Shown: positions 13,035-37,345, counted from the stretch's first letter. The stretch: DNA of 64,000 bases from Kineococcus xinjiangensis (GCF_002934625.1 NZ_PTJD01000001.1:445041-509040); one strand, 5' to 3'. Notes: generated from the letters alone by a model not told the origin. Translations and numbers: made by a program.

Positions 13035-13137
13035 CCTGCCGGGCGTTCCCGGGCGCCGGCTCGGGAGCCCGCCCTCCCCGGGGCGCAGCGGACCGGGTCC
13101 GCGGCCGCGGCCGGCGCGGGCGGTAGCGTTCCGGCTC

Positions 13138-13965
13138 GTGCCGCCCTCCTCCACCGCCACCCGCTACGACGACGACCTGCGCCTGGCCCACGTCATCGCC
13201 GACCAGGTCGACGGCCTGACGATGGACCGCTTCCGGGCGCGCGACCTGCGGGTGGAGACGAAGCCGGACCTGACGCCGGTGACGGACGCCGACCGGGCCG
13301 CGGAGGAGCTGGTGCGCTCGCAGCTCAAGCGCACCCGGCCCCGGGACTCGGTGCTGGGCGAGGAGTACGGCCTCGTGGGCCACGGGCAGCGGCAGTGGGT
13401 GGTGGACCCCATCGACGGCACGAAGAACTTCGTCCGCGGGGTGCCGGTGTGGGCCACGCTCATCGCCCTGCTCGACGACGGCGTGCCGGTGCTGGGCGTG
13501 GTCTCGGCCCCGGCGCTGGGGAAGCGCTGGTGGGCCTCGCGCGGCTCGGGGGCCTGGTCCGGGCGCAGCCTGGCCTCGGCGGTGCGCCTGTCCGTGTCGG
13601 GGGTGCGCTCGCTGGCGGACGCGTCGTTCGCGTACTCCTCGCTGAGCGGCTGGGAGGAGGCGGGGCGCCTGGAGGGGTTCCTGGAGCTGTCCCGGCGGGT
13701 GTGGCGCACCCGCGGCTACGGCGACTTCTGGTCGTACATGCTGCTGGCGGAGGGCGCCGTGGACGTGGCGGCGGAGCCGGAGCTGGCGCTGCACGACATG
13801 GCGGCGCTGGTGCCGATCGTGGAGGAGGCGGGGGGTCGCTTCACCTCCCGCGACGGCGTCGACGGCTGCGGCGGCGGCAACGCGGTGGTGACCAACGGCC
13901 ACCTGCACGAGGAGGCGCTGCGCTACCTGGGCACGGGGGCGCACGTGCCGGCGGCCGGGGCCTGA
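13138..13965 (+). CDS. hisN: inositol-monophosphatase-family histidinol-phosphatase
   Basis: IMPase motifs LGEEYG, VVDPIDGT and WDxAA-like (DFWSYMLLAEGAVDV) are present. The protein is collinear with actinobacterial HisN. Confidence 0.75.
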   Translation: MPPSSTATRYDDDLRLAHVIADQVDGLTMDRFRARDLRVETKPDLTPVTDADRAAEELVRSQLKRTRPRDSVLGEEYGLVGHGQRQWVVDPIDGTKNFVRGVPVWATLIALLDDGVPVLGVVSAPALGKRWWASRGSGAWSGRSLASAVRLSVSGVRSLADASFAYSSLSGWEEAGRLEGFLELSRRVWRTRGYGDFWSYMLLAEGAVDVAAEPELALHDMAALVPIVEEAGGRFTSRDGVDGCGGGNAVVTNGHLHEEALRYLGTGAHVPAAGA

Positions 13966-13974
13966 GGCGCGCCC

Positions 13975-14754
13975 GTGGTCGTCCCCGCGCTCCCGGCCGG
14001 CCTGACGCGGCGGCTGGTCGTCTGGGAGCTGGTCGCGGTGTTCGCGGTCTCCCTGGGTGCCAGCGGCCTGCGCGCCCTGGTGAACTTCGTCGGTGCCGTG
14101 ACGGCGCCCGCGCCGCTGTCGTCGCAGCGGGCGACGGTGCTGGGCTCCTTCACCCCCGACCGGCCGTGGCTGGACCTGGCCTACCACCTGGTCTCCATCG
14201 CCACGGGGCTTGCGCCGGTGCTGCTGGTGGCGTACCTGCTGGTGCGCAGCGGGGAGTCGCTGCGCACCATCGGGGTGGACGCCAGTCGGCCGGGCTCCGA
14301 CCTGGGCCGGGGCCTGGCCCTGGCTGCGGCGATCGGCTCGACGGGCCTGGTGTTCTACCTGGCCACCGTCGCCCTCGGCATCAACAAGATGGTGGTGGCC
14401 TCGTCGCTGCCGGACGTGTGGTGGGCGGTGCCGGTGCAGGTGCTGGCCGCCGCGGAGAACGGCATCCTCGAGGAGGTCCTCGTCGCGGGGTTCCTGCTGC
14501 ACCGCCTGGCGCAGCTCGGGGTGGGGCGCGGCCGCGCGCTCGTCATCAGCTCGCTGCTGCGGGGCTCGTACCACCTGTACCAGGGCGCGGGCGGGTTCCT
14601 GGGCAACGTCATCATGGGTTTCGTCTTCGGCTGGCTGTACCAGCGCTGGGGGCGGGCGATGCCGCTGGTCGTCGCGCACACGGCGATCGACGTGGGGGCG
14701 TTCGTGGGCTTCGCCCTCCTGGCGGGGCGGGTGAGCTGGCTGCCGGGGGCCTGA
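13975..14754 (+). CDS. CPBP-family intramembrane glutamic endopeptidase (CAAX protease/Abi)
   Basis: The EExxxR-like motif (ENGILEEVLVAGFLLHR) and a conserved His in a later TM helix (LVVAHTAIDVGAFV) lie on a polytopic scaffold. Confidence 0.75.
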   Translation: MVVPALPAGLTRRLVVWELVAVFAVSLGASGLRALVNFVGAVTAPAPLSSQRATVLGSFTPDRPWLDLAYHLVSIATGLAPVLLVAYLLVRSGESLRTIGVDASRPGSDLGRGLALAAAIGSTGLVFYLATVALGINKMVVASSLPDVWWAVPVQVLAAAENGILEEVLVAGFLLHRLAQLGVGRGRALVISSLLRGSYHLYQGAGGFLGNVIMGFVFGWLYQRWGRAMPLVVAHTAIDVGAFVGFALLAGRVSWLPGA

Positions 14755-14801: not shown

Positions 14802-17800
14802 CTACCGGCGAGGCTGCACCGGCTGCCGCAGCAGGTGCAGCGGTGCCGGTTCGACACCGAGGTCCGTCAGCGCCCGCCAGTGGGCGAGGGCGAGCGCCTC
14901 GTCGACCAGGCCGTGGACCGGGGGGAGGCCAGGGCGGACCACGTGCACCAGTGCCTCCAGCTGGCACGACGGGACGGTGCCGGGGATGCGGTGGCCGGTC
15001 AGGTGCCGGGCGTACGGGCGGAGCACGGGGTCGTCGGCGGGTGTCTGCGTCGACGGGCCCGCCGTGAGCAGGCCGCCGCCGACCACGACCACGTCACCGC
15101 GCTCGGCCATCCGACGGGTGGCGGTGCGGGGGTCGAAGCAGTGCGGGAAGGAGTCGTCGACGACGATCGCGCCCGCGCGCAGCGAGTCGACGTCCAGGAC
15201 GCGGCGGTGCCCGCTGACGGCTGCGATGACCAGGTCCGCCTCGTGCACCGCGGCCGGCGCCCGTCCGTCCGGCCCGCACACCGCGACCTCGGCGCGGTGT
15301 CCGCGCGCTCTCGACTCCTCGGCCAGCCGGCCGAGGTGTGCGGCGCGGCCGGGAACGTCGCACAGCAGCAGACGCGCGGGCGCACCGGGTCCGAGGGTCA
15401 GCAGGAGCCGCAGCGACGACCAGCCGATGGAGCCGAGACCGACCACCGCCAGCGTGCACCCGTCGAGCCGGGTGCCGGTCGCGGCGAGGGCGAGGCGTGT
15501 GGTCGCCACCACCGACGCCGCGGTCACGGCGTGCCCGGTGGTCACGCGGGGAGCGTCCGGCGGCAGGGCCCGCACGACCTCGAAGCCGTAGCCGGTGTGC
15601 GCCGGGACCATCCCGGCCAGGGAGACCGCGGCCGCTCCGAGCCGGGCGGCGGTCTCGACGGCCCGCGCGACGTGCCGGGCCAGCGGAGCGCCGGCGGCCG
15701 GGCCCAGTTCGTCGGCGAAGACCGGGAGGCAGAGGAAGCCGGAGCGCCCGAGCGGTGTCGTCAGCTCCTCCAGCAGGCGGGGTCGGCCGTCGGGGAACAG
15801 CGCCGACCTGATCGACTCGCGCAGCCCGTCGGAGACCGGGAGGCCGGCCCGCGCCGCGAGCTCCTCCGGTGCCGGCAGGTACCCGACCAGCGCCGCGTCC
15901 AGCGACCGCGTCGCCGGGGTGACCGGCGCGGACGGCTGCGCGATGACCGGGCGGGCTGCCGAGGTGGCGCTGCCTCCCCGGGCGGCGTCGGTCAGCTCCC
16001 GCCGCACCTGCGCCGCCAAGTTCTCGAGGTCCGCGGGAGGCAGCACCCCGGCGGAGCAGCGCAGGGTCACCTGCAGGCCCGCTGCGCCCGGTCGCGCGGT
16101 GAGCAGCAGGTCCGTGCCGACCCGTGGCGGCTCGAGGTCGGTGCCCTCGTCCCAGGCCAGTGACAGCCGCCCGCCGCCGATCGGCCCGAGTGCCTCGAAG
16201 TCGAGGTAGCTGAACAGGAACTGGCCGCCGAACGACGACACGGACCCCGCGGAGGTGCCACGCCGGACGCGCTGCCGGATCGTCGCCCCGTCCCCCCGGG
16301 CCCGGTCGACGGCTGCCGCGACCTCCCGCACCTGCGCGGGGAAGGACGCTGCCGTGCCGTGCAGCCGCACCGGGACCACCGTCGCGAACGGCCCGACCAC
16401 CCGGTGCACGTCGGGTAGGGCGTGGTCACGTCCGGCGACCGCCACCCCGAGCAGCAGGTCGGCCTGGCCGGTCAGCCGCGCCAGGGCCCGGTGGTAGGCG
16501 GCGAGCACCGGCGCGAAGGGCGTGGCACCGGCCGCGGCCGCGCAGTCCCGCAGCGCGACGGTGAGCTCGTGGTCGAGGGTGAACGCCGTCCTGCCCGGTG
16601 CCGCCGAGGCCGCCTCGGGCCGGCGGAGCACGGGCGGGACGTAGCCGGGGCCCGCCTCGGCCCGGGCCTCGGCGGCCTCCCCGCCCTCCTGCCGCAGGAG
16701 CTCGACGTGGTCCCGGAACGTGCTGCGCAGCGGCGGCAGGCTCCGCGTCCTCCCGTCGGCGACCTCGTCGTAGAGCGACAGCAGGTCCTGCACCAGGACG
16801 ACCGCGCTGTAGCCGTCGCCGAGCAGGTGGTGAGCATGGACGACGAGGGCGTGCCGCCCGGGGCCGGTCCGCAGGACCTGCAGCCGCGCCAGCGGCCAGG
16901 AGGAGGCGTCGAGGCGGTGGGCCCGTTCCTCGGCCAGCCGCTGCGCCAGCTCCCCCGGATCCACGGAGCGGAAGCGGACGGGGATGCGCGCAGGCTGGTC
17001 CACCTCCTCCTGCACCGGCGGGCGCCGGTCGGCAGCGATCGCGGTCCGCAGCATGGGGTGCCGCTGCACGAGGCGGTCGACGGCGGTCTGGAAGTGCCCC
17101 GCATCCAGCTCGCCGGTCAGGCTGAAGCAGGCCAGCCAGCTCGTGCGGGCCCCCGGCGAGAGCGCCTCCGCCAGGAGGAACCCGCGCTGCGACGCGCTCA
17201 GCGGGAACGGCCCCGTCGTGCTCCGGCGGGGGCGATGCGGGGCAGGAGCCGCCTCGGCTGCGTCGACGGCGGCGGCCAGGCCGGCCAGCGTGCGGTGCCG
17301 GTGGAGCGCGCCGGGTGCGGGCAGGGCCGGGCGGTGCGGCTCCAGCTGGGCGAAGACCTCCAGCACGCCGATCGAGTCGCCGCCGAGGGCGAAGAAGTCG
17401 TCCTCGCGCGACACCTCCGCGACGCCGAGCAGCCGCTGCCACACCGAGGCGACGAGCTGCTCGGTCGGGGTGCGCGGTGGTGTCCGGTGCGGGCTCTGCG
17501 GGTGGGCCGGCGCCGGGGTGCCGGGCAGGCGGGCACGGTCCAGCTTCCCGGTCGCGGTGAGCGGCAGCTCGCCGACGACGGCCAGCCGGGCGGGGACCAG
17601 GTAGTCGGGCAGCCGCTCCGCCAGGTGGGCGCGGAGCTGCTCGGCCGTCGGGTCCGGACCGTCGCCCCGCAGCAGGACGTAGCCGACGAGGCGCGTCGTC
17701 CGCCCGTCGGGGGCCGGCTGGGCGACTACGGCGGCCCTCTCCACGGCCGGGTGCTCGCGCAGCACCGCCTCGGCCTCGCCGGGCTCGACCCGGTGGCCGC

Positions 17801-20800
17801 GGACCTTCACCTGCTCGTCGGTCCGGCCGAGGAACTCCAGGGCTCCGTCGTCCCGGCGGGCGACCCGGTCGCCGGTGCGGTACCAGCGGAGCCCGTCGCG
17901 GACGGGGAAGGCCCGCTCGGTCTGCTCGGGGTCGTCGAGGTACCCGGGGGTCAGGCCGGGGCCCGCCACCCACAGCTCCCCCGGCTCCCCGGCGGCGCAC
18001 CCCGCGCCGTTGGGGCCGACGACGTCCACCACCGCCCCCGCCACCGGGAAGCCGATCGGGATGCGGTTCATCGCGTCGTCAGGCCGGCGGTCGACGACGT
18101 GGCAGGTGGCGTTGACGGTCGCCTCGGTCGGCCCGTACAGGTTCACGATGCGCTGCGCCGGCCCGAAGAGGTCGAACCAGCGGCGGACCGGCACGGGCGA
18201 CAGGGCCTCCCCGCCGACGTGCACCCACCGCAGCGCCGACAGGTCGGGGGTGCCGCCGCCGGAGGCGACCTGCCGCTCGGCGGTGCGCAGGAGCTGCTCC
18301 CACAGCGTCGGCACCGAGCTCCAGACGGTGACCCGGCCCTGCTCGACCAGGTCGAGCAGCACCCGCGGGTCCCGTACCGCCTCGCGCGAGGCGGTGACGA
18401 CGGTGGCCCCGACCAGCAGCGGCGCGAGCAGCTGCCGGACCGAGGCGTCGAAGCAGATCGACGCGGTGGCCAGCATCCGGTCGCCCGCCCGGTAGCCGAA
18501 GGCGCCGACCGCCCAGCCCAGGTAGGTGGACACGGCGCGGTGGGTGATCGGGACGCCCTTCGGCCGGCCGGTCGTGCCGGAGGTGAAGGTCACGTAGGCG
18601 ATGTCGTCCGCGGCCGGCCGGGCGGGCGGCGCGTCGGGTGCGTCACCCACCGCTCCGCTGTCCACCTCGAGGACACGCAGGGGCGCGAGGAGCGAGGCGG
18701 CGCAGCGCGTCTCCGAGTCGCACACCACGGTGGTGGCGTGCGCCCGGTCCACGAGGTCGCGCAGCCGGGCCGGGGGGTGGGTGGGGTCCAGGGGGACCCA
18801 GGCCGCCCCGGAGTAGAGGATGCCGAGGAGTCCGATCACCGTCGCCGGACCCGGCGGCGTCAACAGGGCGACGCGGTCGCCCGCCCCGGTGCCGTCGACG
18901 CGCAGGCGGGCGGAGAGCCGGCGGGCCGCGCGGTCCAGCGCTCCGTAGCTCAGGGAGGTGCCGGCGTGCTCGACCGCGACCGCCTCCGGTGCGCGTCGGC
19001 ACTGCCGCGCGATGCGCAGGGCGAGCGAGTCCTCCGGCGCCCCCGGTCCCGGTGCTGCGGGTTCCTGGTCCGGCCGGGTGGCCCCCACCAGCTCGGCCAG
19101 CAGGTCGTCGCTGAGGCGCTCCAGCGTGGCCGGGGTGAAGAGACGAGCCGGGTGGTTCCAGGAGAAGCGGAGGGCACCGTCGAACTCCCAGCAGAGCAGG
19201 CTCAGCCCCGTCGCCGCCGAGGCCGTCCGCGCGGCGGTCTCCACGATCCGCACCGGGCAGTCGGTCGGCAGCTCGGCCGGGAAGCGGGCGAAGCTGAAGC
19301 CGGCCACAGCGGTCCCCGGCGCGGCGGGCAGCAGGCGGGCCAGGTCCAGCGAGCTCACGCTCCCGTGCTCCTCGGCGTCGCGCCACGCCGCCCGCACGAC
19401 GGGCGCCAGTGCGGCGGTGCCCGGCACGTCGGTCCCGACCGAGAGGGGCAGGGTGTCGGCGAAGGGGCCGACCACTCCCCCGATGCCCGCGAGCCGGGTA
19501 CCCCGACCGGCCCGTGCCACGTTGACGGTGACGCGCTGCCGGCCGGTCCGGCCTGCCAGCGTGCGCGCAAAGGCTGCGAGCACCAGGTGGAACAGGGAGA
19601 CGTCCAGCGCGGCCGCCCGGGTCCGCAGGGCGGCGGTGAGCGCGGCGTCGATGCCGAACTGCCGCGCGGTCAGCGGCGGGGCCGGTGCCTCGTCGGGATC
19701 CCCGTCGCAGGGCGGTTCCGCGACGGGCTCCGGCGTCCGCAGCCGTTCACCCCAGTGGTCGAGGTCGGCGACGAAGGCACCCGACCTCCGTTCCGTCGCG
19801 ACGAGGTCGGCGTGGTCGCGGAACGTCGACGGCAGGGCCGGCAGTTCGACGGGACGGTGCTGCGACAGGGCGGTGTAGACCCGCCACAGCTCGGCGCAGA
19901 GCAGGTTGAGGCTGGCTCCGTCTGCGGCGGCGTGGTGGAGGAGGAGCAGCAGCGAGGCGCGGTCGGCGTCCTCCCGGAGCAGGACCGCGCGCAGCGGGGG
20001 TCCGGTCGCGAGGTCGAGGACGCGGTTGCACAGCGCGTCCTCGGCGTCGTGGAGCGAGCCGGTCAGCGACCGGACCTCGAACCACTCCGGCCAGTCCGCG
20101 CCCCCTGGCGGTTCGACCTCCTGGCGCGGACGGCCGTCGACGGTGCGGATCCGCAGCCGCAGCATCGGGTGGCGGCGCTGCAGCAGGCTCAGGGAACGGG
20201 CGAGCAGCGCCGGGTCGGGGCCGCCGGTGAGGGTCTGCCGGAGGTAGGCGTAGGCAGGCACGTCGGGGTGCAGCAGGCCGCTGGTGTGGAAGGCCAGTTG
20301 CACCGGCGTCAGGGGGAACGGCCCCGTCTCCCGCGGCGCGTCCGGCGCCGGGGACGGCCCGGGGGCGACGGTCTGGCTTCCCGCCAGGTGGGCCGACAGT
20401 TGCGCGATCGACGGGTGCTCGAACAGCAGCGTGGTGGGCAGCTCCCGTCCGAGCTCGCGCTCGAGCCTGCGGACGAGGTCGACCGCGGCGAGGGAATCCA
20501 GCCCCATGGTCAGCAGCGACGCCTCCTCGTCGAGGTCCTCCGGGTGACGGCCCAGCTCAGCGGCGATCAAGCCGGCCACCACGTCGCGCGGTGCGCGCGC
20601 GGTCCGGTCCGCGGATGCGGGCGCGAGCGGCGGTCCCTCGGCCGGCGCCGGTGCTGGAACCGGCGGGAGGCGACGCCGGGGGGCGGGCGCGAGCGGGGGG
20701 CCGACCGGCTCGGGGCCCCTCACGAGCAGCTGCGCGGCGTCGACCGACGGCGCGTCCAGCACCGCCCCGGCCGCGGCCTGCGGGTCGACCTGCGGCACGT

Positions 20801-23800
20801 CCGCGACGGCGGCCAGGGCGCGGAAGGCCGCCGAGTCGGCCATGCCGGTGCCGGTCCAGGCGGCGAGGTTGAGCACCTGCATCGGTCGTCCGGCGTGCGC
20901 CTCGGCTGCCGCGAACGCGTCGAGGAACGAGTTCGCGGCGGCGTAGGCGCCGAGCCCACCGGCGTGACCCGGGAGGACGGAGGCGATCGAGGAGAGGGCG
21001 ACGAAGGCTCCCGGCCGGTTGCCGGCGAGGTCCAGCGCGCGGGCGAGCAGCAGGGTGCCCTGCACCTTCGGGGCGCAGACCGCCGCCACGGCCGGGACCG
21101 ACGTCGAGGCGAGCGTGCCCGGCTCCAGCAGCCCGGCGGCGTGGAGGACCCCGTCCAGCCTGGGCAGGGCGTCCACCAGGCCGGCCACGTCCACCGGCTG
21201 CGAGAGGTCCGCGCGGTGGTACCGGACCCGCGCACCCACCGCGGCGAGCTCCGCGACCAGGGCTCCCGGCGGGCGGGCGGTGCGCCCGACCAGGTGGAGG
21301 TCGGGGACGCCGCGGTCGGCGAGCGCCCGGGCCAGCGCAGCGCCGACACCGCCCGCACCGCCGGTGATCAGGTAGCACCCGTCCGCCGGCAGCGGGGGGC
21401 GGTCGGCCACGACCCCGGCGGCCAACGGCACCCTGGACAGCCGGCGCCCGCCGCGCCAGGCCACCGACTCGGCCGGGCCGGGCGCCGGCGGCGCGTCCAG
21501 CTCACGCACCAGCGCGTCGAGCCGGGCGGCGGTGTCGTCGAGGCTCGACAGGTCGACGAGCCGGAGCGGCTGCCGCCGGACTTCCTCGGGGAGCGCCAGC
21601 GCCAGACCGGCCAGGACCGCCTGACCGGGGCGGGCGCACTCGGTCGCCGCACCGGTCACGGCGACGTCCTCGGTGACGAGGAGCAGCGGGACGGGCCGCT
21701 CGGCCAGGAACCTCGCCAGCGGCAGGACGGTGCCCGCGGCGTCACGGGTCGAGGCGTCCAGGGCGTCGACGTCGTCGAGTTCCGCGCTCGGGCCGGCGAG
21801 CACGACCAGCACCGACACGTCCGGCAGCCCGGCCAGGTCCGGCAGTGCGCACGTGTGCACCGCGATGCCCCGCCTCGTGAGCCGTCGCGACAGAGCCGGG
21901 ACGAGGTCGGGGTGTGCGCCGACGAGGCCGACCGACGCCAGCACGGCACCGGCCGGCAGGGGGGTCTCGCGCCAGTCGAAACGGCGCAGCAGCGCCGACG
22001 GCGGGCGGTCCACCGAACCGTCCGTCTCGCCCCTGCCCACCGTGCCCGGCAGCCAGTGGGGCACCCGCTGGAACGGGTAGGTCGGCACCGGCACGCGCGG
22101 CCGAGGCGGATCCTCGGGTGGCGGGTGGATCGGTGCGCCGCGCTCCCACAGCCGGCCGACTGTGCCGAGGAAGGCCGCCGCGTCGTCGTCGCCGTCGGAG
22201 GCGGAGCCGAGGGCGGACAGGACCGCGACGTCCGAGGACGGCTGCAGGGCGCGCACCGCGGCGGCGACGAGGCCGCACAGCGCGGCGCCCGGCCCGACGG
22301 TGACGAGCGTGTCGTACCCCTCGGACAGCAACCGCTCGAGGACGGGGTGGAACAGCACCGGGCTGCGTGCGTGGTCGAGGAGGTACGCGGCGTCCAGTCG
22401 CGGGTTCCACTGCACGCTCACCGTGCTGAGCAGCGGCGTGCGCCACGCCCCCGGCGCGAGCCGGGCCGCGGCCGACCGCAGCCCGTCCAGCGCCGGATCC
22501 ACGCCCGGGGAGTGGAAGGCCCGCGAGACCGCCAGCCGCCGCCCCGGCAGGCCCCGCCGGGACAGCGCGGCCAGCACCGCGTCCACCGCGCTCCCGGGGC
22601 CCGAGACCACCACCTGGGACGGCCCGTTGACGGCGGCCACCACGGCCTCGTCGCCGGCCGCCGCCAGCACCTCCCGGACCTCTTCGGTGGAGGCGTCCAC
22701 CGCGGCCATCGCACCTGCGGCGCAGCGCTCCTGCATCAGCCGCCCGCGCTCGGCGGCGAAGCGCACCGCCTCGCGCGGGTCCAGCGCGCCGGCCACGGCG
22801 GCCGCGGCCAGCTCGCCGACGCTGTGCCCGGCCACCGCGTCGGGGCGCACCCCCCACGCCCGCAGCTGCGCGGCGAGCGCGATCCCGTGCGCCACCAGCA
22901 GCGGCTGGGCGACGTCCGTTCTCGCGAGCTCCCCCGGCTCGACGTCGTCGAGCGACCAGGCGAGCAGGCTGCGACCGCGGACCTCCCCCGCGGCCCCGGA
23001 CAGCTCCTCCACCACCTGCCGGTAGACCGGCTGCGACCGCAGCGCCCGGCCGAGCCCCGGCACCTGGGTGCCTTGGCCGGAGAACAGCAGTGCGGTCCTC
23101 GGGCGGCGCCGCGCGACGGCACCGGTCGTAGCGGCGCCCTCCAGCCGGTCGGCGAGGTCACCATCGACGGTCAGCGCCAGGCGGTGCGGGCGGTGGTCGC
23201 GGGCCGTGCTCGCACTGCGGACGAGGTCCGCTTCGTGCAGGTGGGGGTGCGCCCGGACGTGGGCGGCGAGTTCACGGGCTGCCGCCCGCAGCGCCGCTCC
23301 GGTCGCCGCGGAGAGGGTCAGCAGGTGCGGCCCGGGCGGCGGGGGCGACGACGGCCCGGGCCGGGGCGCCTCCTCCAGGATGACGTGCGCGTTCGTGCCG
23401 CCGAACCCGAACCCGTTGACGCCGGCCCGCAGCGGCAGTCCACCGGTCCACTCCCGGGGTTCGCGGACCACCTCGAGGCCCGCGGCGGCGAGGTCGAACG
23501 CGGCGGACGGTTCCTCGTGGTGCAGGGTCGGCGGCAGCGCGCGGTGGCTCAGGCTGAGGACCACCTTGACCAGGCTGGGCATCCCCGCGGAGTTGAGCAG
23601 GTGCCCGACGTTGGTCTTGACCGACCCCAGCCACCGCCGTCCGACGGCCGGGGCGGGGAACGTGCGCATCAGCGACCGCGCCTCGATCGGGTCCCCGATC
23701 GCGGTGCCCGTCCCGTGCGCCTCCACGTAGCTCACGGTCGCCGGGTCGATGCCGGCGTCGCGGTACGCCCGGGCGATCACGGCCTCCTGCAGTTGCGGGT

Positions 23801-26615
23801 TGGGCGCCATCAGGCTCAGCGAGCGCCCGTCGTTGTTCACGGTGCTGCCGCGAACCACGGCCAGCACCGGGTCCCCGGCCGCCCGCGCCACCGACAGCGG
23901 TTCGAGGACGAGGGCAGCCGCTCCCTCGCCGGGGACGAACCCGTCCGCGGCGGAGCTGAAGGCGCGGCAGCGGCCCGTCGGGGACAGCGCCTGCGCCGCC
24001 TCCAGCAGCCGGTGGCCGGTGGGGGTCAGGTTCAGACTGACCCCGCCCACGACGGCGGCGTCGCACTCGCCCGCCTCGAGGCTGCGCCGGGCCAGGTGCA
24101 GCGCGACCAGCGCGGAGGAGCAGGCGGTGTCGACGGCCAGCACCGGGCCGGAGAGGTCGAGGTGGTGCGCCACCCGCGCCGCGATGAGGTTGCGCAGGTT
24201 GCCCACCAGGGCCGAGGGGGGCACCGGCGCGCCGCTGTCCAGGGCCCGCTGCAGCAGGGTCGGGTAGCCGCTCTCGCCGACGGCGACGAAGACCCCGATG
24301 CGCCGGCCGCGTCGGCGCTCCCCCGCGTAGCCGGCGCGCTCCAGGGCCTCGTGGGCCACCTCGAGGAAGATGCGGGCGTGGGGGTCCGTGACGCCGGCCT
24401 CCGCGGCGTCGAGCCCGAAGAACCCCGCGTCGAAACCGGCGACATCGTCGAGGAACGCGCCCCACCGGGCCGTGGCCCCAGGGTTTGGCCGCCACCGGGC
24501 GGACGGCACCTCGGTGACGCTGTCGCGTCCCGCGCACAGGTTGCGCCAGAACGCCTCCGGGGTGTCGGCGTCGGGGAGGCGACAGGCCATCCCGACGACC
24601 GCTGCGGGATCCGCCGGCGGCGGCGCCTCGACCTCGCGGGGCGCGGGCTCCGCTCTCCGAGGCGCCGCCTCGGGAACACCCGCCAGTTCCTCGGCCAGCG
24701 CCGCGACGGTGGCGCAGTTCCGCAGCAGGGACTGCGGCAGCGGCCCGCCGAACTCGGTCTCCAGTTCGGCGAGCACGTGCAGCGCGGCCAGGGACGAACC
24801 ACCGACGGCCAGGAACCGGTCGTCGCGGGAGATCGACGAGGCCGGCACGCCGAGCACCTCCGCCCAGATCCGGGTGATGCGCTCCTCGATGCCGGAACGG
24901 GTCGACGGCGGCGCGGAGGCGGTTCCCCCCGCGCTCATCCGGGCGGCGACCTCCGCCTCCAGCGCGGCGAACCGCCCAGCGGTCAGCCGCTCCCGCAGCA
25001 CCGAGCGTTGGACCTTGCCGCTCGTGGTGCGGGGGAAGTCCTCCGGGGGGATCGGCAGCACGCAGACGTCACCGTGGCCCAGGGCCTCGCGGACGCGCGC
25101 CCGCACGGCGGCCAGCACCGGGACCAGGCCGTCGTCCAGCGGCTGGCGCGACGTCACGAACACGGCGACCCGCTCGGTGCCGCCTGCGGGATCGGTGCGG
25201 CCGACGACGGCGACCCGCCCGGGCGGTGCGCCGGGAGTGGCGAGCGCCACCTGCTCGAGGTCGCAGGCGTGGAACTTCTGGCCGGCGACGAACACCACGT
25301 CCTTGGCGCGGCCGGTCACGCACAGCCGGCCGCGGCGGAGGAAGCCCAGGTCGCCGGTGCGCAGCCAGCCGTCGGCGAAGGTCCGGGCGGTCTCCTCCGG
25401 CTGCCCGGAGTAGCCGCCGGCGACGTTCGGCCCGCGGAACTCGACGTGCCCGACCCGCGAGTCGGCCAGCACCTCCCCCTCGTCCCCGACGACGCGCAAC
25501 TCACCGCCCGGCACCGCGTAGCCGACGTCGAGGAGCTCCACGGGCGGCGGGCCGCCGGGTACCGGTTCGACGTCGACCGCGCGGCCGTCCGACAGTTCCC
25601 GCCGGTCCAGGACGAGCGGGCGGGCGACCTCGCCCAGCGGCGGGAACGCCACCGCCAGCGTCGCCTCCGCCAGCCCGTAGAGCGGGGCCAGCGCGCTCGG
25701 CCGGAGCCCGGAGGGACGCATGTGCTGGGAGAACGCGCGCCACATCGGCACCGGGATCGGCTCGGCACCGACGCCGACCAAGCGCACAGAGCGCAGGTCC
25801 AGCGCGGCGACCTCCTCCGCCGTCACGCGCCTGACCGTCAGCGCCAGCGCGAAGCTCGCCATCGGCAGCAGCGTGGCGCCGTGCCGGGCGGCGGCCTCGT
25901 ACCAGAGCGCCGGTCGTGCCCCGAAGTCCGCCGGGTCGAGCTTGACCTGCTTCAGCTGCAGCGACAGCGGGGTGAGGTGGGCGCCGATCAGGCCCATGTC
26001 GTGGGAGTACGGCAGCCAGCTGACCATCACGTCCGACTCCGTCACCGCACCGGCCGCGCGGGCCTGCCGGAGGTTGGCGACGACGTTGGCGTGGCTGAGC
26101 ACGACCCCCTTCGGGGCGCCGGTGCTGCCGGAGGAGAACTGCAGGAACGCGACGTCCGCGGCATCCGGCCGGTGCACCCGGGACAGCGGGTCGGCCAGCC
26201 GCAGTTCGTCCAGCGCGAGCATCCGGGGTCCGGACGGCGCACCGGCCCCCGGCAGGTGCCCCGGCGGGCGGGTGACGTCGGCGCCGGCCAGCAGCGGCGG
26301 CCGGCCCAGCTGCGCCCACACCGCCGCGACCTTCGCCGGCACCGGGGCCAGCGGCACGGGCACCAGCCCCGCGGCGAGCGCACCCCAGAAGCCGGTCAGG
26401 AAGTCGGTGCCGGCGCCCGCCAGCACGATCACGGGCGAGCCGGGTTCCGCGCCGGCGGTGCGCAGTCCCCCGGCGACGCGCAGGGACTCCTGCAGCAGTT
26501 CGTCGTAGCGCAGCACACGCTCATCGCCGTCCGCCGCGGTCCGGACGACCACCTGCTCGGGCGCGACCTCGGCGGCGTTGAGGAGGACGTCGAGGAGGGT
26601 GCCGTCGCGGCTCAC
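14802..26615 (-). CDS. hybrid PKS/NRPS megasynthase: FAAL-ACP-KS-AT-KR-ACP-C-A-PCP-C-(NAD(P)-binding Rossmann domain)
   Basis: One ORF of about 3,937 aa. Catalytic landmarks, as minus-strand nt positions, are: FAAL SSGSTGAPKG about 26120; ACP1 GGSSLAALH about 24795; KS DTACSS about 24125; AT GHSVGE about 22825 with the malonyl-type RAFHS motif; KR YLITGGAGGVG about 21360; ACP2 MGLDSLA about 20495; C1 HHAAADG about 19940; A-domain SGTTGRPKG about 18575 and GRTDEQVKVRGHRVE about 17300; PCP LGGDSIG about 17380; C2 HHLLGDG about 16825; terminal GLGSIG Rossmann motif about 15435. I place the start at GTG 26615, which overlaps the PPTase stop (GTGA). The in-frame ORF upstream to 26801 would run into the PPTase. 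Confidence 0.9.
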   Translation of the reverse strand: MSRDGTLLDVLLNAAEVAPEQVVVRTAADGDERVLRYDELLQESLRVAGGLRTAGAEPGSPVIVLAGAGTDFLTGFWGALAAGLVPVPLAPVPAKVAAVWAQLGRPPLLAGADVTRPPGHLPGAGAPSGPRMLALDELRLADPLSRVHRPDAADVAFLQFSSGSTGAPKGVVLSHANVVANLRQARAAGAVTESDVMVSWLPYSHDMGLIGAHLTPLSLQLKQVKLDPADFGARPALWYEAAARHGATLLPMASFALALTVRRVTAEEVAALDLRSVRLVGVGAEPIPVPMWRAFSQHMRPSGLRPSALAPLYGLAEATLAVAFPPLGEVARPLVLDRRELSDGRAVDVEPVPGGPPPVELLDVGYAVPGGELRVVGDEGEVLADSRVGHVEFRGPNVAGGYSGQPEETARTFADGWLRTGDLGFLRRGRLCVTGRAKDVVFVAGQKFHACDLEQVALATPGAPPGRVAVVGRTDPAGGTERVAVFVTSRQPLDDGLVPVLAAVRARVREALGHGDVCVLPIPPEDFPRTTSGKVQRSVLRERLTAGRFAALEAEVAARMSAGGTASAPPSTRSGIEERITRIWAEVLGVPASSISRDDRFLAVGGSSLAALHVLAELETEFGGPLPQSLLRNCATVAALAEELAGVPEAAPRRAEPAPREVEAPPPADPAAVVGMACRLPDADTPEAFWRNLCAGRDSVTEVPSARWRPNPGATARWGAFLDDVAGFDAGFFGLDAAEAGVTDPHARIFLEVAHEALERAGYAGERRRGRRIGVFVAVGESGYPTLLQRALDSGAPVPPSALVGNLRNLIAARVAHHLDLSGPVLAVDTACSSALVALHLARRSLEAGECDAAVVGGVSLNLTPTGHRLLEAAQALSPTGRCRAFSSAADGFVPGEGAAALVLEPLSVARAAGDPVLAVVRGSTVNNDGRSLSLMAPNPQLQEAVIARAYRDAGIDPATVSYVEAHGTGTAIGDPIEARSLMRTFPAPAVGRRWLGSVKTNVGHLLNSAGMPSLVKVVLSLSHRALPPTLHHEEPSAAFDLAAAGLEVVREPREWTGGLPLRAGVNGFGFGGTNAHVILEEAPRPGPSSPPPPGPHLLTLSAATGAALRAAARELAAHVRAHPHLHEADLVRSASTARDHRPHRLALTVDGDLADRLEGAATTGAVARRRPRTALLFSGQGTQVPGLGRALRSQPVYRQVVEELSGAAGEVRGRSLLAWSLDDVEPGELARTDVAQPLLVAHGIALAAQLRAWGVRPDAVAGHSVGELAAAAVAGALDPREAVRFAAERGRLMQERCAAGAMAAVDASTEEVREVLAAAGDEAVVAAVNGPSQVVVSGPGSAVDAVLAALSRRGLPGRRLAVSRAFHSPGVDPALDGLRSAAARLAPGAWRTPLLSTVSVQWNPRLDAAYLLDHARSPVLFHPVLERLLSEGYDTLVTVGPGAALCGLVAAAVRALQPSSDVAVLSALGSASDGDDDAAAFLGTVGRLWERGAPIHPPPEDPPRPRVPVPTYPFQRVPHWLPGTVGRGETDGSVDRPPSALLRRFDWRETPLPAGAVLASVGLVGAHPDLVPALSRRLTRRGIAVHTCALPDLAGLPDVSVLVVLAGPSAELDDVDALDASTRDAAGTVLPLARFLAERPVPLLLVTEDVAVTGAATECARPGQAVLAGLALALPEEVRRQPLRLVDLSSLDDTAARLDALVRELDAPPAPGPAESVAWRGGRRLSRVPLAAGVVADRPPLPADGCYLITGGAGGVGAALARALADRGVPDLHLVGRTARPPGALVAELAAVGARVRYHRADLSQPVDVAGLVDALPRLDGVLHAAGLLEPGTLASTSVPAVAAVCAPKVQGTLLLARALDLAGNRPGAFVALSSIASVLPGHAGGLGAYAAANSFLDAFAAAEAHAGRPMQVLNLAAWTGTGMADSAAFRALAAVADVPQVDPQAAAGAVLDAPSVDAAQLLVRGPEPVGPPLAPAPRRRLPPVPAPAPAEGPPLAPASADRTARAPRDVVAGLIAAELGRHPEDLDEEASLLTMGLDSLAAVDLVRRLERELGRELPTTLLFEHPSIAQLSAHLAGSQTVAPGPSPAPDAPRETGPFPLTPVQLAFHTSGLLHPDVPAYAYLRQTLTGGPDPALLARSLSLLQRRHPMLRLRIRTVDGRPRQEVEPPGGADWPEWFEVRSLTGSLHDAEDALCNRVLDLATGPPLRAVLLREDADRASLLLLLHHAAADGASLNLLCAELWRVYTALSQHRPVELPALPSTFRDHADLVATERRSGAFVADLDHWGERLRTPEPVAEPPCDGDPDEAPAPPLTARQFGIDAALTAALRTRAAALDVSLFHLVLAAFARTLAGRTGRQRVTVNVARAGRGTRLAGIGGVVGPFADTLPLSVGTDVPGTAALAPVVRAAWRDAEEHGSVSSLDLARLLPAAPGTAVAGFSFARFPAELPTDCPVRIVETAARTASAATGLSLLCWEFDGALRFSWNHPARLFTPATLERLSDDLLAELVGATRPDQEPAAPGPGAPEDSLALRIARQCRRAPEAVAVEHAGTSLSYGALDRAARRLSARLRVDGTGAGDRVALLTPPGPATVIGLLGILYSGAAWVPLDPTHPPARLRDLVDRAHATTVVCDSETRCAASLLAPLRVLEVDSGAVGDAPDAPPARPAADDIAYVTFTSGTTGRPKGVPITHRAVSTYLGWAVGAFGYRAGDRMLATASICFDASVRQLLAPLLVGATVVTASREAVRDPRVLLDLVEQGRVTVWSSVPTLWEQLLRTAERQVASGGGTPDLSALRWVHVGGEALSPVPVRRWFDLFGPAQRIVNLYGPTEATVNATCHVVDRRPDDAMNRIPIGFPVAGAVVDVVGPNGAGCAAGEPGELWVAGPGLTPGYLDDPEQTERAFPVRDGLRWYRTGDRVARRDDGALEFLGRTDEQVKVRGHRVEPGEAEAVLREHPAVERAAVVAQPAPDGRTTRLVGYVLLRGDGPDPTAEQLRAHLAERLPDYLVPARLAVVGELPLTATGKLDRARLPGTPAPAHPQSPHRTPPRTPTEQLVASVWQRLLGVAEVSREDDFFALGGDSIGVLEVFAQLEPHRPALPAPGALHRHRTLAGLAAAVDAAEAAPAPHRPRRSTTGPFPLSASQRGFLLAEALSPGARTSWLACFSLTGELDAGHFQTAVDRLVQRHPMLRTAIAADRRPPVQEEVDQPARIPVRFRSVDPGELAQRLAEERAHRLDASSWPLARLQVLRTGPGRHALVVHAHHLLGDGYSAVVLVQDLLSLYDEVADGRTRSLPPLRSTFRDHVELLRQEGGEAAEARAEAGPGYVPPVLRRPEAASAAPGRTAFTLDHELTVALRDCAAAAGATPFAPVLAAYHRALARLTGQADLLLGVAVAGRDHALPDVHRVVGPFATVVPVRLHGTAASFPAQVREVAAAVDRARGDGATIRQRVRRGTSAGSVSSFGGQFLFSYLDFEALGPIGGGRLSLAWDEGTDLEPPRVGTDLLLTARPGAAGLQVTLRCSAGVLPPADLENLAAQVRRELTDAARGGSATSAARPVIAQPSAPVTPATRSLDAALVGYLPAPEELAARAGLPVSDGLRESIRSALFPDGRPRLLEELTTPLGRSGFLCLPVFADELGPAAGAPLARHVARAVETAARLGAAAVSLAGMVPAHTGYGFEVVRALPPDAPRVTTGHAVTAASVVATTRLALAATGTRLDGCTLAVVGLGSIGWSSLRLLLTLGPGAPARLLLCDVPGRAAHLGRLAEESRARGHRAEVAVCGPDGRAPAAVHEADLVIAAVSGHRRVLDVDSLRAGAIVVDDSFPHCFDPRTATRRMAERGDVVVVGGGLLTAGPSTQTPADDPVLRPYARHLTGHRIPGTVPSCQLEALVHVVRPGLPPVHGLVDEALALAHWRALTDLGVEPAPLHLLRQPVQPRR

Positions 26616-27250
26616 GGGTCCCGCTCCCAGCACACGGTGAGGTGCACCCCGTCCGCCGGGTTCGAGGACCGGAACCCCCAGCGGGCCCCCTCCGCCCCGC
26701 CCAGGCGGGGTTCCGTTGCGCTGCAGTCCAGCGCGACGGTCCGCGGATCGCGCCCGAGGCCGGTCCCGGTCGCCTTCAGGTACGCCTCCTTGGCGGTCCA
26801 CAGCCTCAGGAAGCGCTCCTGCCGCCCCGCCGCGTCGGGCGCGTCCTCGAACCAGTCCAGCTCACCGGCCGACAGGCAGCGACGGGCGAGCGCCGGAGTG
26901 GTCGCCCGGGGGCCCTCGACGTCGACCCCGACCCGCCCGCCGGTGTGCGTGGCCACGGTGACCCAGCCGCCGCCGTGGGACAGGCTGACGTCGAGCGGCG
27001 GGTCGGCGACCGGACGGCCGGTGGGGGTGCGCCGCACCGACGCGCCGAGATCGGCGGCGAGTCGTCGGAGGAGGTGCCAGCCGAGCGCCGAGTCCTGCCG
27101 GTCCTCCCACCGCTGCAGCCGCGCCAGCCGGTGCTGCTCGGCGGACGGCAGGCCGGCGAGCAGCGCCGACCACGCGGGTGGCGCGAGCCGGGGACCGCGC
27201 GGCACCACGACGAGGTGCGCCGGCGGGGCGGGGGCGGCGTCGCTCTGCAT
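26612..27250 (-). CDS. Sfp-type 4'-phosphopantetheinyl transferase
   Basis: Motifs VGVDVEG and WTAKEAYLKATG are present, and the protein is about 212 aa. Its stop overlaps the megasynthase start, so the two are translationally coupled. Confidence 0.8.
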   Translation of the reverse strand: MQSDAAPAPPAHLVVVPRGPRLAPPAWSALLAGLPSAEQHRLARLQRWEDRQDSALGWHLLRRLAADLGASVRRTPTGRPVADPPLDVSLSHGGGWVTVATHTGGRVGVDVEGPRATTPALARRCLSAGELDWFEDAPDAAGRQERFLRLWTAKEAYLKATGTGLGRDPRTVALDCSATEPRLGGAEGARWGFRSSNPADGVHLTVCWERDP

Positions 27251-27434: not shown

Positions 27435-28853
27435 TCAGCGCAGGAACCACTGCCGCGGGGCGGCGAGCTCCTCGACGGCGTCCGGTCCCCAGGTGCCCTC
27501 GGCGTAGGGCAGCACCTCGGGCCGGGCCTGCTGGAACGGCTCGATGGCCTGCCAGGCGTTGCGCAGTCCCTCGACGCCGGTGAAGAGGGCGCGGTCGCCG
27601 GTGAGCACGTCGTGGATGAGCTTCACGTAGGGCGGGGCGTCGGTGCCGGGGAGCGAGGGCAGGGGCAGCGCGGCGGTGCCGGTGGTCAGCTCCTCCCCCA
27701 CCCCGAGCGCCTTGACGATCAGGGCGACCTCGATGCGGCCGCCCTCCAGCAGGGAGAAGCTGAGGGCGCTGGGCCGCTCCGGCAGCTCCGTCAGGGGCCC
27801 CTCGGGCCTGCGCAGCAGCAGTGTGATGCGCTGCTCGTCGGCGGCCATCTTCTTGCCGCTGCGCAGCAGGAACGGAACCCCGCGCCAGCGCTCGGAGTCC
27901 ACCCACAGCCGCACCGCCGCGAGGGTGTCGGTGCTGGAGTCGTCGGCGACGCCGTCGATGTCGCGGTAGCCCTCGAACTGGCCGAGGACGACCTCGGCGG
28001 GGTCGACGGCGCGGAAGTCCGCCAGGGCCGCGTCGCGGGCGGCGCGTACGGCGTCGGCGGACAGGTCGGCCGGGGTCTCCATCGCCACGGTCGCGGCGAG
28101 CTGGAACAGGTGGGTGACGATCATGTCGAGGAACGCGCCGGTGGCGTCGTAGAAGTCCGCGCGCTGGGCGACGTCGAGGGTCTCGGCGATGTCGATCTGC
28201 ACCTGCTCGACGTGCTCGCGGTTCCACACCGCCCCGAGCAGGGTGTTCGCGAAGCGGGCCCCGACGAGGTTGCGCACGGCCTCGAAGGCGAGGAAGTGGT
28301 CGATGCGGAAGACCTGGGACTCGTCGAAGACGCGCTGCACCTCGGCGTCGAGCTCCTCGAAGGAGGCCAGGTCGGTGCCGTAGGGCTTCTCGTAGACGAT
28401 GCGGCAGCCCTCGGCGAGGCCGTGGGCCTCGATGGCCCTGGTGATGCCGAGGGCCGCCCCCGGCGGCACGGCGAGGTAGTGGACGAGCTGCGCGTCGGCA
28501 CCGACGGCGTCGCGGGCCTCTGCGACGCGCGCGGGCAGCGAGCCGGCGTCGTCGGCGGAGAAACCGCCACCGGCGTAGGAGAGGCGGGCGGAGAAGTCCT
28601 CCCAGGGGCCCTCGCCCGGCTGGGGGCCGAACTCCTCCAGCGCCTCGCGCACGTGGTCGCGGAACCAGGCGGTGTCCTCGTCGCCGCGGGAGGTGCCGAC
28701 CAGGCGCCACTGCTCGGGCAGCAGGCCCTGGCGGGCCAGCTCGAAGAAGGCCGGCAGGACGAGGCGGCGGGCGAGGTCCCCGGTCGCGCCATACATCACG
28801 AACACGGTCGGCTGGGCCGGGGGTCGGGTCTCGCGCACGGGCTGGCTCACCAC
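27435..28853 (-). CDS. zwf: glucose-6-phosphate 1-dehydrogenase
   Basis: The dinucleotide fingerprint FVMYGATGDLARR, the active-site motif RIDHFLAFE (compare RIDHYLGKE) and EKPYGTD are present. The length is 472 aa. Confidence 0.9.
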   Translation of the reverse strand: MVSQPVRETRPPAQPTVFVMYGATGDLARRLVLPAFFELARQGLLPEQWRLVGTSRGDEDTAWFRDHVREALEEFGPQPGEGPWEDFSARLSYAGGGFSADDAGSLPARVAEARDAVGADAQLVHYLAVPPGAALGITRAIEAHGLAEGCRIVYEKPYGTDLASFEELDAEVQRVFDESQVFRIDHFLAFEAVRNLVGARFANTLLGAVWNREHVEQVQIDIAETLDVAQRADFYDATGAFLDMIVTHLFQLAATVAMETPADLSADAVRAARDAALADFRAVDPAEVVLGQFEGYRDIDGVADDSSTDTLAAVRLWVDSERWRGVPFLLRSGKKMAADEQRITLLLRRPEGPLTELPERPSALSFSLLEGGRIEVALIVKALGVGEELTTGTAALPLPSLPGTDAPPYVKLIHDVLTGDRALFTGVEGLRNAWQAIEPFQQARPEVLPYAEGTWGPDAVEELAAPRQWFLR

Positions 28854-29160
28854 TCACCTCGTCGGGTCGGCTTCCGGAAGTCTTCCAGGAGTGTTGCAGG
28901 CGGGGCCGTCGCGTCGAACGCTAGGCCGTCCCGGTGCGCCGCGCGCGAGCAGCCCGACGCCGCCGGCCGCCGGGGCGCTAGGGTTCCCGGCATGACCGCC
29001 GCCCGCGCCGCCGCCACCGCCCGCGGTGCGCTGCGCGGTGCGTGGTGGTGGGCGACCCCGTCGGCCGCCTGAGCCCCACCGCCAGGGAGGCCGCCGCGAG
29101 GTGGCGCTGCCCGGCCCCCCTCGCCGACCGGCTCCGCACCCCGAGCCCGACCGAGGAGAA

Positions 29161-37186: not shown

Positions 37187-37345
37187 CGGTCCACACCACC
37201 ACAACGGGGGCCGGATGCGCGCGGGGGTTTCGGTGTCGGCCGGGACGGACCGCAGCGCACCTCCTGCGTCGGTCGTCCCCGTGTGGTACCCACGAGTGTG
37301 GGTGATGCTCAGGACCGGCGCGGACGCCCGGTGCCCCCGGTCCTC

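Follow-up and report, generated by a model that had tools for sequence, protein, structure and literature searches.

A stand-alone FAAL-PKS-NRPS megasynthase of Kineococcus xinjiangensis that ends in a condensation domain and a homologue of the CarI TAD

In a 64,000-nucleotide stretch of the Kineococcus xinjiangensis genome (GCF_002934625.1, NZ_PTJD01000001.1:445041-509040; hereafter the window), a 4'-phosphopantetheinyl transferase (PPTase) gene and a megasynthase gene form a two-gene unit that is real and intact and probably a self-contained operon. The megasynthase is a single polypeptide of 3,937 aa with the order fatty acyl-AMP ligase (FAAL), acyl carrier protein (ACP), ketosynthase (KS), acyltransferase (AT), ketoreductase (KR), ACP, condensation (C), adenylation (A), peptidyl carrier protein (PCP), C and TAD, the last named after the 'putative terminal amidation domain' of CarI. 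As a hybrid of polyketide synthase (PKS) and nonribosomal peptide synthetase (NRPS) the locus is ordinary, and it is a member of a large orphan family. What sets the family apart is its end, a conserved pair of a second C domain (C2) and a TAD (together C-TAD). We give a probability of about 0.6 to the reading that the operon is self-contained, that it assembles an N-(3-hydroxyacyl)-aminoacyl thioester on its PCP, and that this chain is released by the C2-TAD pair.

The PPTase-megasynthase operon and its predicted assembly line

The minus-strand open reading frame (ORF) of the megasynthase is open from 26801 to 14802, and a GTG start at 26615 gives the 3,937-aa product (14802..26615, minus strand), whose domains were assigned with Pfam, NCBIfam and motifs. 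The gene runs for 11.8 kb without interruption at 76% G+C, in a window with a G+C content of 70-82%. Its junction with the upstream gene reads ...GAG CGG GAC CCG TGA / GTG AGC CGC..., such that the GTGA tetranucleotide at 26615-26612 is common to the PPTase stop codon (26614-26612) and the megasynthase start codon (26615-26613). The start coupling of the two genes claimed in a first-pass annotation of the window can thus be read directly in the junction sequence. The upstream gene (26612..27250, minus strand, ATG at 27250) encodes an Sfp-type PPTase of 212 aa that is 100% identical to the NCBI entry '4'-phosphopantetheinyl transferase [Kineococcus xinjiangensis]' (Actinomycetota, Kineosporiales). 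It matches Pfam ACPS (6e-17) and, weakly, AASDHPPT_N; in its longest ORF, PF01648 lies at residues 151-252 (6e-17) and PF22624 at residues 71-148 (4e-4). An ACPS-superfamily C-terminal half, a related N-terminal half and an annotated length within the expected range of about 210-240 aa are the features of the Sfp-type (group II) enzymes.

The pairing of the two genes is kept in the closest relatives, which are Nocardioidaceae, Ornithinimicrobium and Actinomycetales metagenome-assembled genomes (MAGs; loci L003, L005, L006, L009, L028, L083 and L084). In these the PPTase gene lies directly upstream of the megasynthase gene with a gap of 0-27 nt, which bears out the view that the PPTase is dedicated and translationally coupled, and beyond the pair the flanks of all seven are unrelated to those of the window. 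In Streptomyces loci with 570-1,900 nt of visible upstream sequence, no PPTase gene is seen upstream of the megasynthase. The unit consists of the megasynthase gene alone or, where it needs a PPTase of its own, of both genes. In the window, the PPTase would turn the three carrier domains of the megasynthase into their holo forms.

Pfam finds in the megasynthase, in order, AMP-binding, PP-binding, KS (N, C and C-extension), AT, KR, PP-binding, Condensation, AMP-binding with AMP-binding_C, PP-binding and Condensation. These amount to two AMP-binding, three PP-binding and two Condensation matches, and the last ~350 residues are without a match. This agrees with the order FAAL-ACP-KS-AT-KR-ACP-C-A-PCP-C of the first-pass annotation, which had feared that a KS, AT or C domain might prove inactive; a motif check of every catalytic site found all of them intact.

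Synthesis would begin at the FAAL-like loading domain (aa 1-575, 24891..26615; this and all other megasynthase domains are on the minus strand), which matches Pfam AMP-binding and has an FSSGSTGAPKG motif that is conserved in relatives. The best NCBIfam models for aa 33-549 are the fatty acyl-AMP ligase model PRK09192 (414 bits) and PRK05850. This domain would adenylate a free fatty acid and load it onto ACP1 (aa ~585-665, 24621..24863), where a PP-binding match and the motif GGSSLAA place the attachment site at Ser608. The KS (aa 670-1151, 23163..24608; Pfam ketoacyl-synt, 2e-76, with additional matches to Ketoacyl-synt_C and KAsynt_C_assoc) has Cys832 in DTACSS and its two His residues in EAHGTGT and NVGHLL. 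The AT (aa 1177-1484, 22164..23087; Pfam Acyl_transf_1, 4e-56) has GHSVGE and the malonyl-type xAFH motif RAFHS, and it is predicted by the HAFH/YASH rule to be malonyl-specific. The KR spans aa ~1560-1935 (20811..21938; Pfam KR, 7.5e-36), with a catalytic part at 1746-1921 and the motifs GGAGGVG and YAAAN, and ACP2 (aa 2012-2077, 20385..20582, the best Pfam PP-binding stretch) has GLDSLAA. The Cys-His-His set of the KS, the GHSxG and xAFH motifs of the AT, the KR Tyr and the ACP Ser are together those of a type I PKS module that reduces to the beta-hydroxyl. The KS and AT would carry out one malonate extension and the KR would reduce its product to a 3-hydroxyacyl chain on ACP2; since there is no dehydratase or enoylreductase domain, the chain would stay 3-hydroxy.

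The NRPS part begins with C1 (aa ~2100-2525, 19041..20318), which matches Pfam Condensation in two stretches and has the motif HHAAADG, an HHxxxDG motif kept in 81 loci. The A domain lies at aa 2536-3024 (17544..19010; Pfam AMP-binding, 1e-142, and AMP-binding_C) rather than at nt ~17300-18600 as first reported, and the PCP (aa ~3050-3120, 17256..17468; PP-binding and motif) has GGDSIG with Ser3081. The A domain would load one specific amino acid onto the PCP, and C1 is predicted to join the 3-hydroxyacyl chain to it by an amide bond, giving N-(3-hydroxyacyl)-aminoacyl-S-PCP. We infer the assembly up to this intermediate with high confidence from the domains and from PKS/NRPS logic. The same course, from an activated fatty acid through a single malonyl extension and a ketoreduction to an amide with one amino acid, had been proposed before, and it follows from the domains.

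The Stachelhaus code of the A domain was taken by alignment to PheA, with the numbering verified on 1AMU. It reads DARSHGLVNK, in which Asp235 and Lys517 are present and position 239 is Arg. The first-pass annotation had pointed to this code as the way to predict the amino acid; the code was obtained, and an amino acid prediction was not, there being no published match. The code DARSHGL(I/V)NK occurs in 72 of 75 actinomycete loci. A second code, GGRNLGLVNK, is found in 16 C-TAD representatives (P0215, P0228, P0230, P0234, P0235 and P0239 among them) and retains Arg239, and because FGGS replaces FDAS in this group, it is without the Asp that binds the alpha-amino group. Since Arg239 is present in both code groups, the side chain of the amino acid is probably anionic or strongly polar. 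The code DMENLGLINK, which we take to be an ornithine code, has its last five positions as in the window code and Glu239 in place of Arg, a change that hints at an acidic substrate and serves as a lead only. In one locus with the code GGRNLGLVNK (P0215, locus L088, 6001-23372), the megasynthase gene is followed by a gene of the isocitrate/isopropylmalate dehydrogenase family, a crotonase gene and an RND transporter gene. These downstream genes hint that the GGRNLGLVNK group may use a hydroxy or keto di-acid and not an amino acid.

The C2-TAD pair and its family

C2 (aa 3137-~3580, 15876..17207; Pfam Condensation over 3137-3439) has the motif HHLLGDG with His3263, is 34% identical to C1, and is followed by no carrier or adenylation domain. 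Its HHxxxDG motif is invariant and is kept in 81 loci. The AlphaFold model of C2 and the terminal domain (mean pLDDT 76.5, the terminal part mostly 85-95) gives C2 a complete C fold, with TM scores of 0.70-0.76 to AmbE CmodAA, SrfA-C, HtmB2-CT and others in Foldseek. Matches of C1 and C2 in the PDB were generic (PvdL C3, McyB and TycC6, and AmbE CmodAA by fold). We rejected C2 as an epimerization (E) domain: it scores 79.9 bits against the PvdL C domain and 52.8 bits against the PvdL E domain, and at the position of EGHGRE, the E-domain motif with the catalytic Glu, it has VAVAGRD, with the E-type Glu absent.

The terminal domain (aa ~3600-3937, 14805..15818; phmmer, Foldseek and motif alignment) is TAD-like and acyl-ACP reductase (AAR)-like. 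It had been described as a terminal Rossmann domain, a label that proves too general: when the last 387 residues were compared with solved structures by phmmer, they matched the CarI TAD entries 9e4x, 9e4s, 9e4u, 9e50 and 9e56 (E=1e-34) and nothing else below 0.01. The model likewise superposes on the CarI TAD in both lobes of its two-lobed fold (a macro-like N-lobe and a Rossmann C-lobe), with TM scores (target) of 0.77-0.84 and an rmsd of 2.1-2.4 Å over ~370 residues against 9e4s, 9e50 and 9e56 (Foldseek). The motifs of the domain are TTGH, GLGSIG, LCDV with the Asp that selects NAD(H) over NADP(H) or CoA, DDSFP, and Cys3884 (codon 14964-14966) with Gln-Leu-Glu after it. Cys3884 is aligned with Cys2238 of CarI, at the start of helix alpha12, and TTGH with the Thr-Thr-Gly motif of CarI; GLGSIG and LCDV align with GLGSVG and LCDV of CarI, a predicted NAD site; and DDSFP stands at the place of the CarI Asp-Asp-Ser-Gly-cisPro loop. 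Among relatives the Cys is kept in all 80 loci, DDSFP is equally constant (80 of 80), and TTGH is found in 75 of 81. Unlike in CarI-type proteins, the terminal domain does not follow the PCP directly, since a 450-aa C domain (aa 3137-3580) lies between the two. A TAD/AAR-like terminal domain with a catalytic Cys would be a release device, and the missing thioesterase is explained by it.

TAD homologues fall into two groups. A HMMER search of 1.84 billion representative sequences found 861 of them (291 at E<=1e-30), nearly all at the extreme C-terminus of large proteins. Enough upstream sequence was available for 99 of the top 150 representatives, and among these the TAD follows a C domain in 53 (C-TAD) and a PCP in 43 (PCP-TAD, the CarI type), with three unclear. 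The C-TAD members are the closest to the window TAD and the PCP-TAD members are more distant. The two groups differ at the active site as well: the loop before the conserved Pro is DDSFP in 50 of 51 C-TADs and DDS[A/G]P in 37 of 47 PCP-TADs, the residue after the Cys is Gln or Arg in 47/51 and Val or Ile in 37/47, and the third residue after it is Glu in 50/51 and Ser in 44/47. PCP-TADs are found at the ends of varied multi-module NRPSs with ~40 different codes in the last A domain (Asp, Asn, Gln, Thr, Gly, Ser, Orn, Cys, Pro and beta-Ala types). In C-TAD proteins, by contrast, the mappable representatives almost always have the order (FAAL-ACP)-KS-(AT)-KR-ACP-C-A-PCP-C-TAD, and their last A-domain codes are DARS[H/Q/K]GL[I/V/L]NK (26 clusters), GGRNLGLVNK (16) and four others. 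Judged by sequence, C-TAD is a distinct clade and a variant of a recently described release domain; PCP-TAD behaves like a generic release domain and C-TAD like a device dedicated to one kind of 3-hydroxyacyl conjugate.

Beyond the actinomycetes, C-TAD is known from Chloroflexota and Bradymonadales and from a contig whose neighbour genes are of Bacteroidota type. A short form of ~2,900 aa, KS-KR-ACP-C-A-PCP-C-TAD without the FAAL, the first ACP and the AT, stands alone in other phyla; two such megasynthase loci are L086 (7622-18997) and L085 (10001-18670). In L086, which has the Bacteroidota-type neighbours, a short-chain dehydrogenase/reductase (SDR) gene overlaps the short-form stop codon, and an Asn-synthase-like amidotransferase gene lies convergently.

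The first-pass annotation had called such compact assembly lines rarely characterized; this one is uncharacterized, yet it is common. A scan of one genome per species found a C2-TAD relative encoded in at least 338 species genomes, the best match (72% identity) being in an uncultured Actinomycetota MAG; K. xinjiangensis itself is absent from the loci that the scan gave. Streptomyces griseus, S. anulatus and S. viridochromogenes are among the carriers, and the PCP-C-TAD end is seen in proteins of Streptomyces, Micromonospora, Streptosporangium, Actinoplanes and Nocardioidaceae. Each window domain was compared by tblastn with 80 loci fetched from these 338 genomes, and the full FAAL-ACP-KS-AT-KR-ACP-C-A-PCP-C-TAD order was found in essentially every locus that was long enough. 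In 66-81 loci from different species, every one of the 11 domains keeps its catalytic motifs (DTACSS in 72 of 72). When the flanking ORFs of 78 loci were clustered, even the commonest family occurred in no more than 17, which share it through Streptomyces synteny. Thus, no conserved trans partner, be it an ammonia donor, a thioesterase or a transporter, is present in more than 17 of the 78. In the CarI preprint, Streptomyces predominates in the largest TAD sequence cluster, which has 460 sequences, and Micromonospora in another (bioRxiv 10.1101/2024.10.28.620694).

Some of these loci have further biosynthetic genes nearby. In some Streptomyces loci (L024, 16640-19036; L027, 21365-22513; and L044, from S. 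curacoi) the megasynthase gene lies a few kb from other KS/AT genes, possibly of a foxicin-type PKS, an adjacency that looks coincidental because most loci are without it. In two Ornithinimicrobium MAGs (L007, 4839-6344; L011, 7615-8661) and in Melissospora (L062, 12749-14278), an extra, weakly related adenylating domain (26-31% identity) is encoded just downstream of the TAD.

Proposed release of the product and competing explanations

We propose that the conserved C2-TAD pair acts in place of a thioesterase. The PCP would pass the chain to Cys3884, and an NAD(H)-dependent step would free it with a modified C-terminus; C2 would subject the intermediate on the PCP to one more acyl transfer, for which the acceptor is not bound to a carrier. 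The hand-over to Cys3884 and the processing beside NAD(H) are modelled on AAR, on the reductase domain of TamH and on CarI cross-linking. In AAR-type domains the acyl group moves from the carrier to the Cys and is reduced by hydride transfer to the aldehyde (PMC9594044), and the CarI preprint describes NAD binding beside an invariant Cys that lies within reach of the phosphopantetheine of the PCP (bioRxiv 10.1101/2024.10.28.620694). As the outcome we would rank an aldehyde slightly ahead, followed by a primary amide, capture of a free nucleophile by C2 and O-acylation of the 3-hydroxyl. The aldehyde is placed slightly ahead of the amide because the C-TAD active site resembles that of a true AAR at two positions.

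Several points weigh against this reading. An amide would be about as defensible as the aldehyde, because it is with CarI-type domains and not with AAR that the window TAD shares the Asp selecting NAD and the second Asp of DDS. The role given to C2 is a placeholder, the computation having identified no acceptor, and the C2-TAD model has a pTM of 0.50, such that the relative orientation of the two domains in it is uninformative. Full-text literature searches for the codes DARSHGL..., DARS[QK]GL... and GGRNLGL... returned no paper from which to assign the amino acid. Likewise, full-text searches for the C-TAD architecture returned no product, and nothing beyond the gene mentioned in a paper on foxicin. 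The TADs of CarI and VatR gave no turnover with any nitrogen donor tried (bioRxiv 10.1101/2024.10.28.620694). No TAD of any kind is known to have been reconstituted in vitro.

Beyond the release reading itself, a broader proposal can be made tentatively. The C-TAD pair may be a distinct cross-phylum off-loading device that does not perform CarI-type amidation, in which an AAR-like NAD(H)-dependent Cys enzyme works with a carrier-less C domain. Such a device may serve only 3-hydroxyacyl chains conjugated to one particular anionic or polar amino acid or, in the GGRNLGLVNK group, to a non-amino acid. Its product may be a so-far-unknown lipid or signal with an important physiological role, made by hundreds of actinomycetes and also by Chloroflexota, Bradymonadales and Bacteroidota-like bacteria.

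Amidative release of the CarI kind, as proposed for cyanobacterial TADs, would instead free the N-(3-hydroxyacyl) amino acid as its primary carboxamide, with C2 merely assisting, for example by positioning the PCP or delivering ammonia. The closest solved homologue of the terminal domain is indeed the CarI TAD, with which it has in common the TTG motif, the NAD-selecting Asp, the Asp under the nicotinamide (the second D of DDS) and the Cys, and carmabin, vatiamide and hectoramide, which come from TAD-ended modules, have terminal amides according to the preprint (bioRxiv 10.1101/2024.10.28.620694). Amidation by a TAD is, however, not known to have been demonstrated in vitro. The CarI-type TADs moreover directly follow a PCP and release chains with ~40 different last residues, whereas C-TADs have another signature and a near-fixed code, and a TAD acting alone would leave the invariant His of C2 unexplained across hundreds of species. 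We consider amidative release rather unlikely on balance. The extra C domain before the TAD is not discussed in the available text and supplement passages of the preprint (bioRxiv 10.1101/2024.10.28.620694).

In the first-pass annotation, C2 captures a further nucleophile, perhaps an amine or alcohol, that is free or delivered in trans, and condenses it with the lipo-amino acid held by the PCP. On this model C2 would be the release catalyst, and the terminal domain an accessory dehydrogenase that makes or modifies the nucleophile. The intact, invariant HHxxxDG motif, the complete C fold and the absence of a carrier after C2 are all consistent with such a capture. The VibH type is an established precedent for terminal C domains with free nucleophiles as substrates. 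Near the megasynthase, however, the 78 loci have in common neither a trans partner nor a gene that could supply the nucleophile. The terminal domain keeps its acyl-accepting Cys in all 80 loci, which speaks for an enzyme that binds a thioester covalently and against a dehydrogenase of free substrates. We regard this explanation as unlikely.

C2 might also O-acylate the 3-hydroxyl with a second chain from ACP1, giving an acyloxyacyl product comparable to the ornithine lipids that the TAD would off-load as a membrane or surface lipid and not as an antibiotic. The co-occurrence of C-TAD with KS-KR, the source of the 3-hydroxyl, in almost every mappable architecture would fit an aminolipid synthase of this kind. 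So would the position of the gene, alone among housekeeping genes in several phyla and without tailoring, resistance or regulatory genes, as for a physiological lipid. The reasoning is purely architectural, the NAD site is left unexplained, and we know of no precedent for a C domain that uses the upstream PCP-bound intermediate of its own module as the acceptor. We regard this explanation as improbable.

Finally, the lack of a thioesterase, transporter and regulator and the housekeeping flanks could be those of a decayed or silent remnant of a larger cluster that makes no product, an idea raised in the first-pass annotation that is now scarcely credible, because the 11.8-kb ORF keeps its 11-domain order and every catalytic motif, these are conserved across 66-81 loci, and standing alone is the rule in the family.

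Flanking genes and known systems

The two-gene unit is flanked by housekeeping genes. On one side lie aroA, rsgA, VKOR, inositol monophosphatase and CPBP protease genes, and on the other glucose-6-phosphate dehydrogenase (G6PD, zwf), TrpE/GATase fusion and flotillin genes. Pfam places the CPBP protease (13975-14754, plus strand), G6PD (27435-28853, minus strand) and the TrpE/GATase fusion (29026-31152, plus strand) where the first-pass annotation had them. We rejected all three as cluster members: they are bystanders, because they are not conserved beside the megasynthase in relatives. The immunity or processing role suggested for the CPBP protease likewise finds no support, CPBP being absent from the flanks of relatives. 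No thioesterase, MbtH-like protein, transporter or regulator belonging to the unit was found at the locus, as had been stated before; the rest of the 64-kb window has no thioesterase and no further PKS or NRPS gene, and no frame of the window has an MbtH-like motif.

Further out, an operon-like run of genes for DUF5691, an AAA_5/MoxR-like ATPase, DUF5682 and a VWA CoxE-like protein (39686-47368, plus strand) covers an 81.8% G+C stretch at 40-42 kb. It is preceded by a gene for a 1,259-aa PAS-GGDEF-EAL protein of cyclic-di-GMP turnover (35690-39469, plus strand). The longest ORFs of the VKOR gene (12351-13160, minus strand) and the inositol monophosphatase gene (12856-13965, plus strand) overlap head to head by ~300 nt; both genes must start further inside, given that their Pfam matches set in at residues 83 and 120.

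A PPTase and a single polypeptide, with no partner genes, make up about the smallest natural system that ends in a TAD, such that expression of the whole and direct read-out of its product could be feasible. The family is among the more widespread orphan megasynthases of actinomycetes, and its product could be a common, overlooked lipid or signal. Furthermore, DDSFP, Cys-[Gln/Arg]-x-Glu and the fixed A-domain codes provide a signature that may sort TAD homologues into two functional classes.

The start of the megasynthase is like that of MycA of the mycosubtilin/iturin type, in which a fatty acid ligase, an ACP and a KS also precede C-A-PCP in one polypeptide of ~4,000 aa. Unlike MycA, the window protein has a cis AT and a KR in place of the aminotransferase (Pfam finds no aminotransferase match in it), which would give a 3-hydroxy rather than a 3-amino chain. 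It would also add a single amino acid, with no downstream NRPS genes and no thioesterase. The first six domains are of the same kind and order as in the FAAL-ACP-KS-AT-KR-ACP part of the olefin synthase Ols and of CurM-type proteins (PMC11730487). Ols ends in a sulfotransferase and a thioesterase and makes a terminal alkene, whereas the window protein continues with an NRPS module and C-TAD. A member of the same family has been reported without a product: an uncharacterized gene annotated as [A-PCP-KS-AT-KR-ACP-C-A-PCP-C] lies beside the foxicin clusters of S. curacoi, S. regalis and Streptomyces sp. JHA19, with its last domain unrecognized (PMC5318452). In S. curacoi DSM 40107 (L044) this gene has the full collinear order, with 46-62% identity per domain.

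At its other end, the megasynthase resembles CarI, VatR and HcaD (Rankin et al. 2024), in which a TAD of ~340-400 aa, with a putative amidating function, likewise stands at the extreme C-terminus of an NRPS without a thioesterase. The CarI TAD shares with the window TAD the TTG motif, GxGxxG, the NAD-selecting Asp, the DDS-x-Pro loop and the catalytic Cys, and differs from it in having DDSGP rather than DDSFP and Cys-Ala-Phe-Ser rather than Cys-Gln-Leu-Glu. At these two places the window TAD is closer to the cyanobacterial SeAAR (sequence verified against 6JZU), a member of the same two-lobed fold family: the Cys aligns with C294 of SeAAR, and the SeAAR motifs DGGYP and Cys-Phe-Ala-Glu have in common with DDSFP and Cys-Gln-Leu-Glu the aromatic residue before the Pro and the Glu three residues after the Cys. 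AAR, however, is a free-standing NADPH enzyme with Thr-Ala-Arg at the position of the NAD-selecting Asp, whereas the window TAD is fused behind an NRPS C domain, has very little sequence similarity to AAR and scores 14.6 bits with the AAR model TIGR04058, below the membership cut-off of 449.7. The AAR-type thioester-reductase domain of TamH and the homologous N-terminal part of PigE belong to the same fold family as the window TAD.

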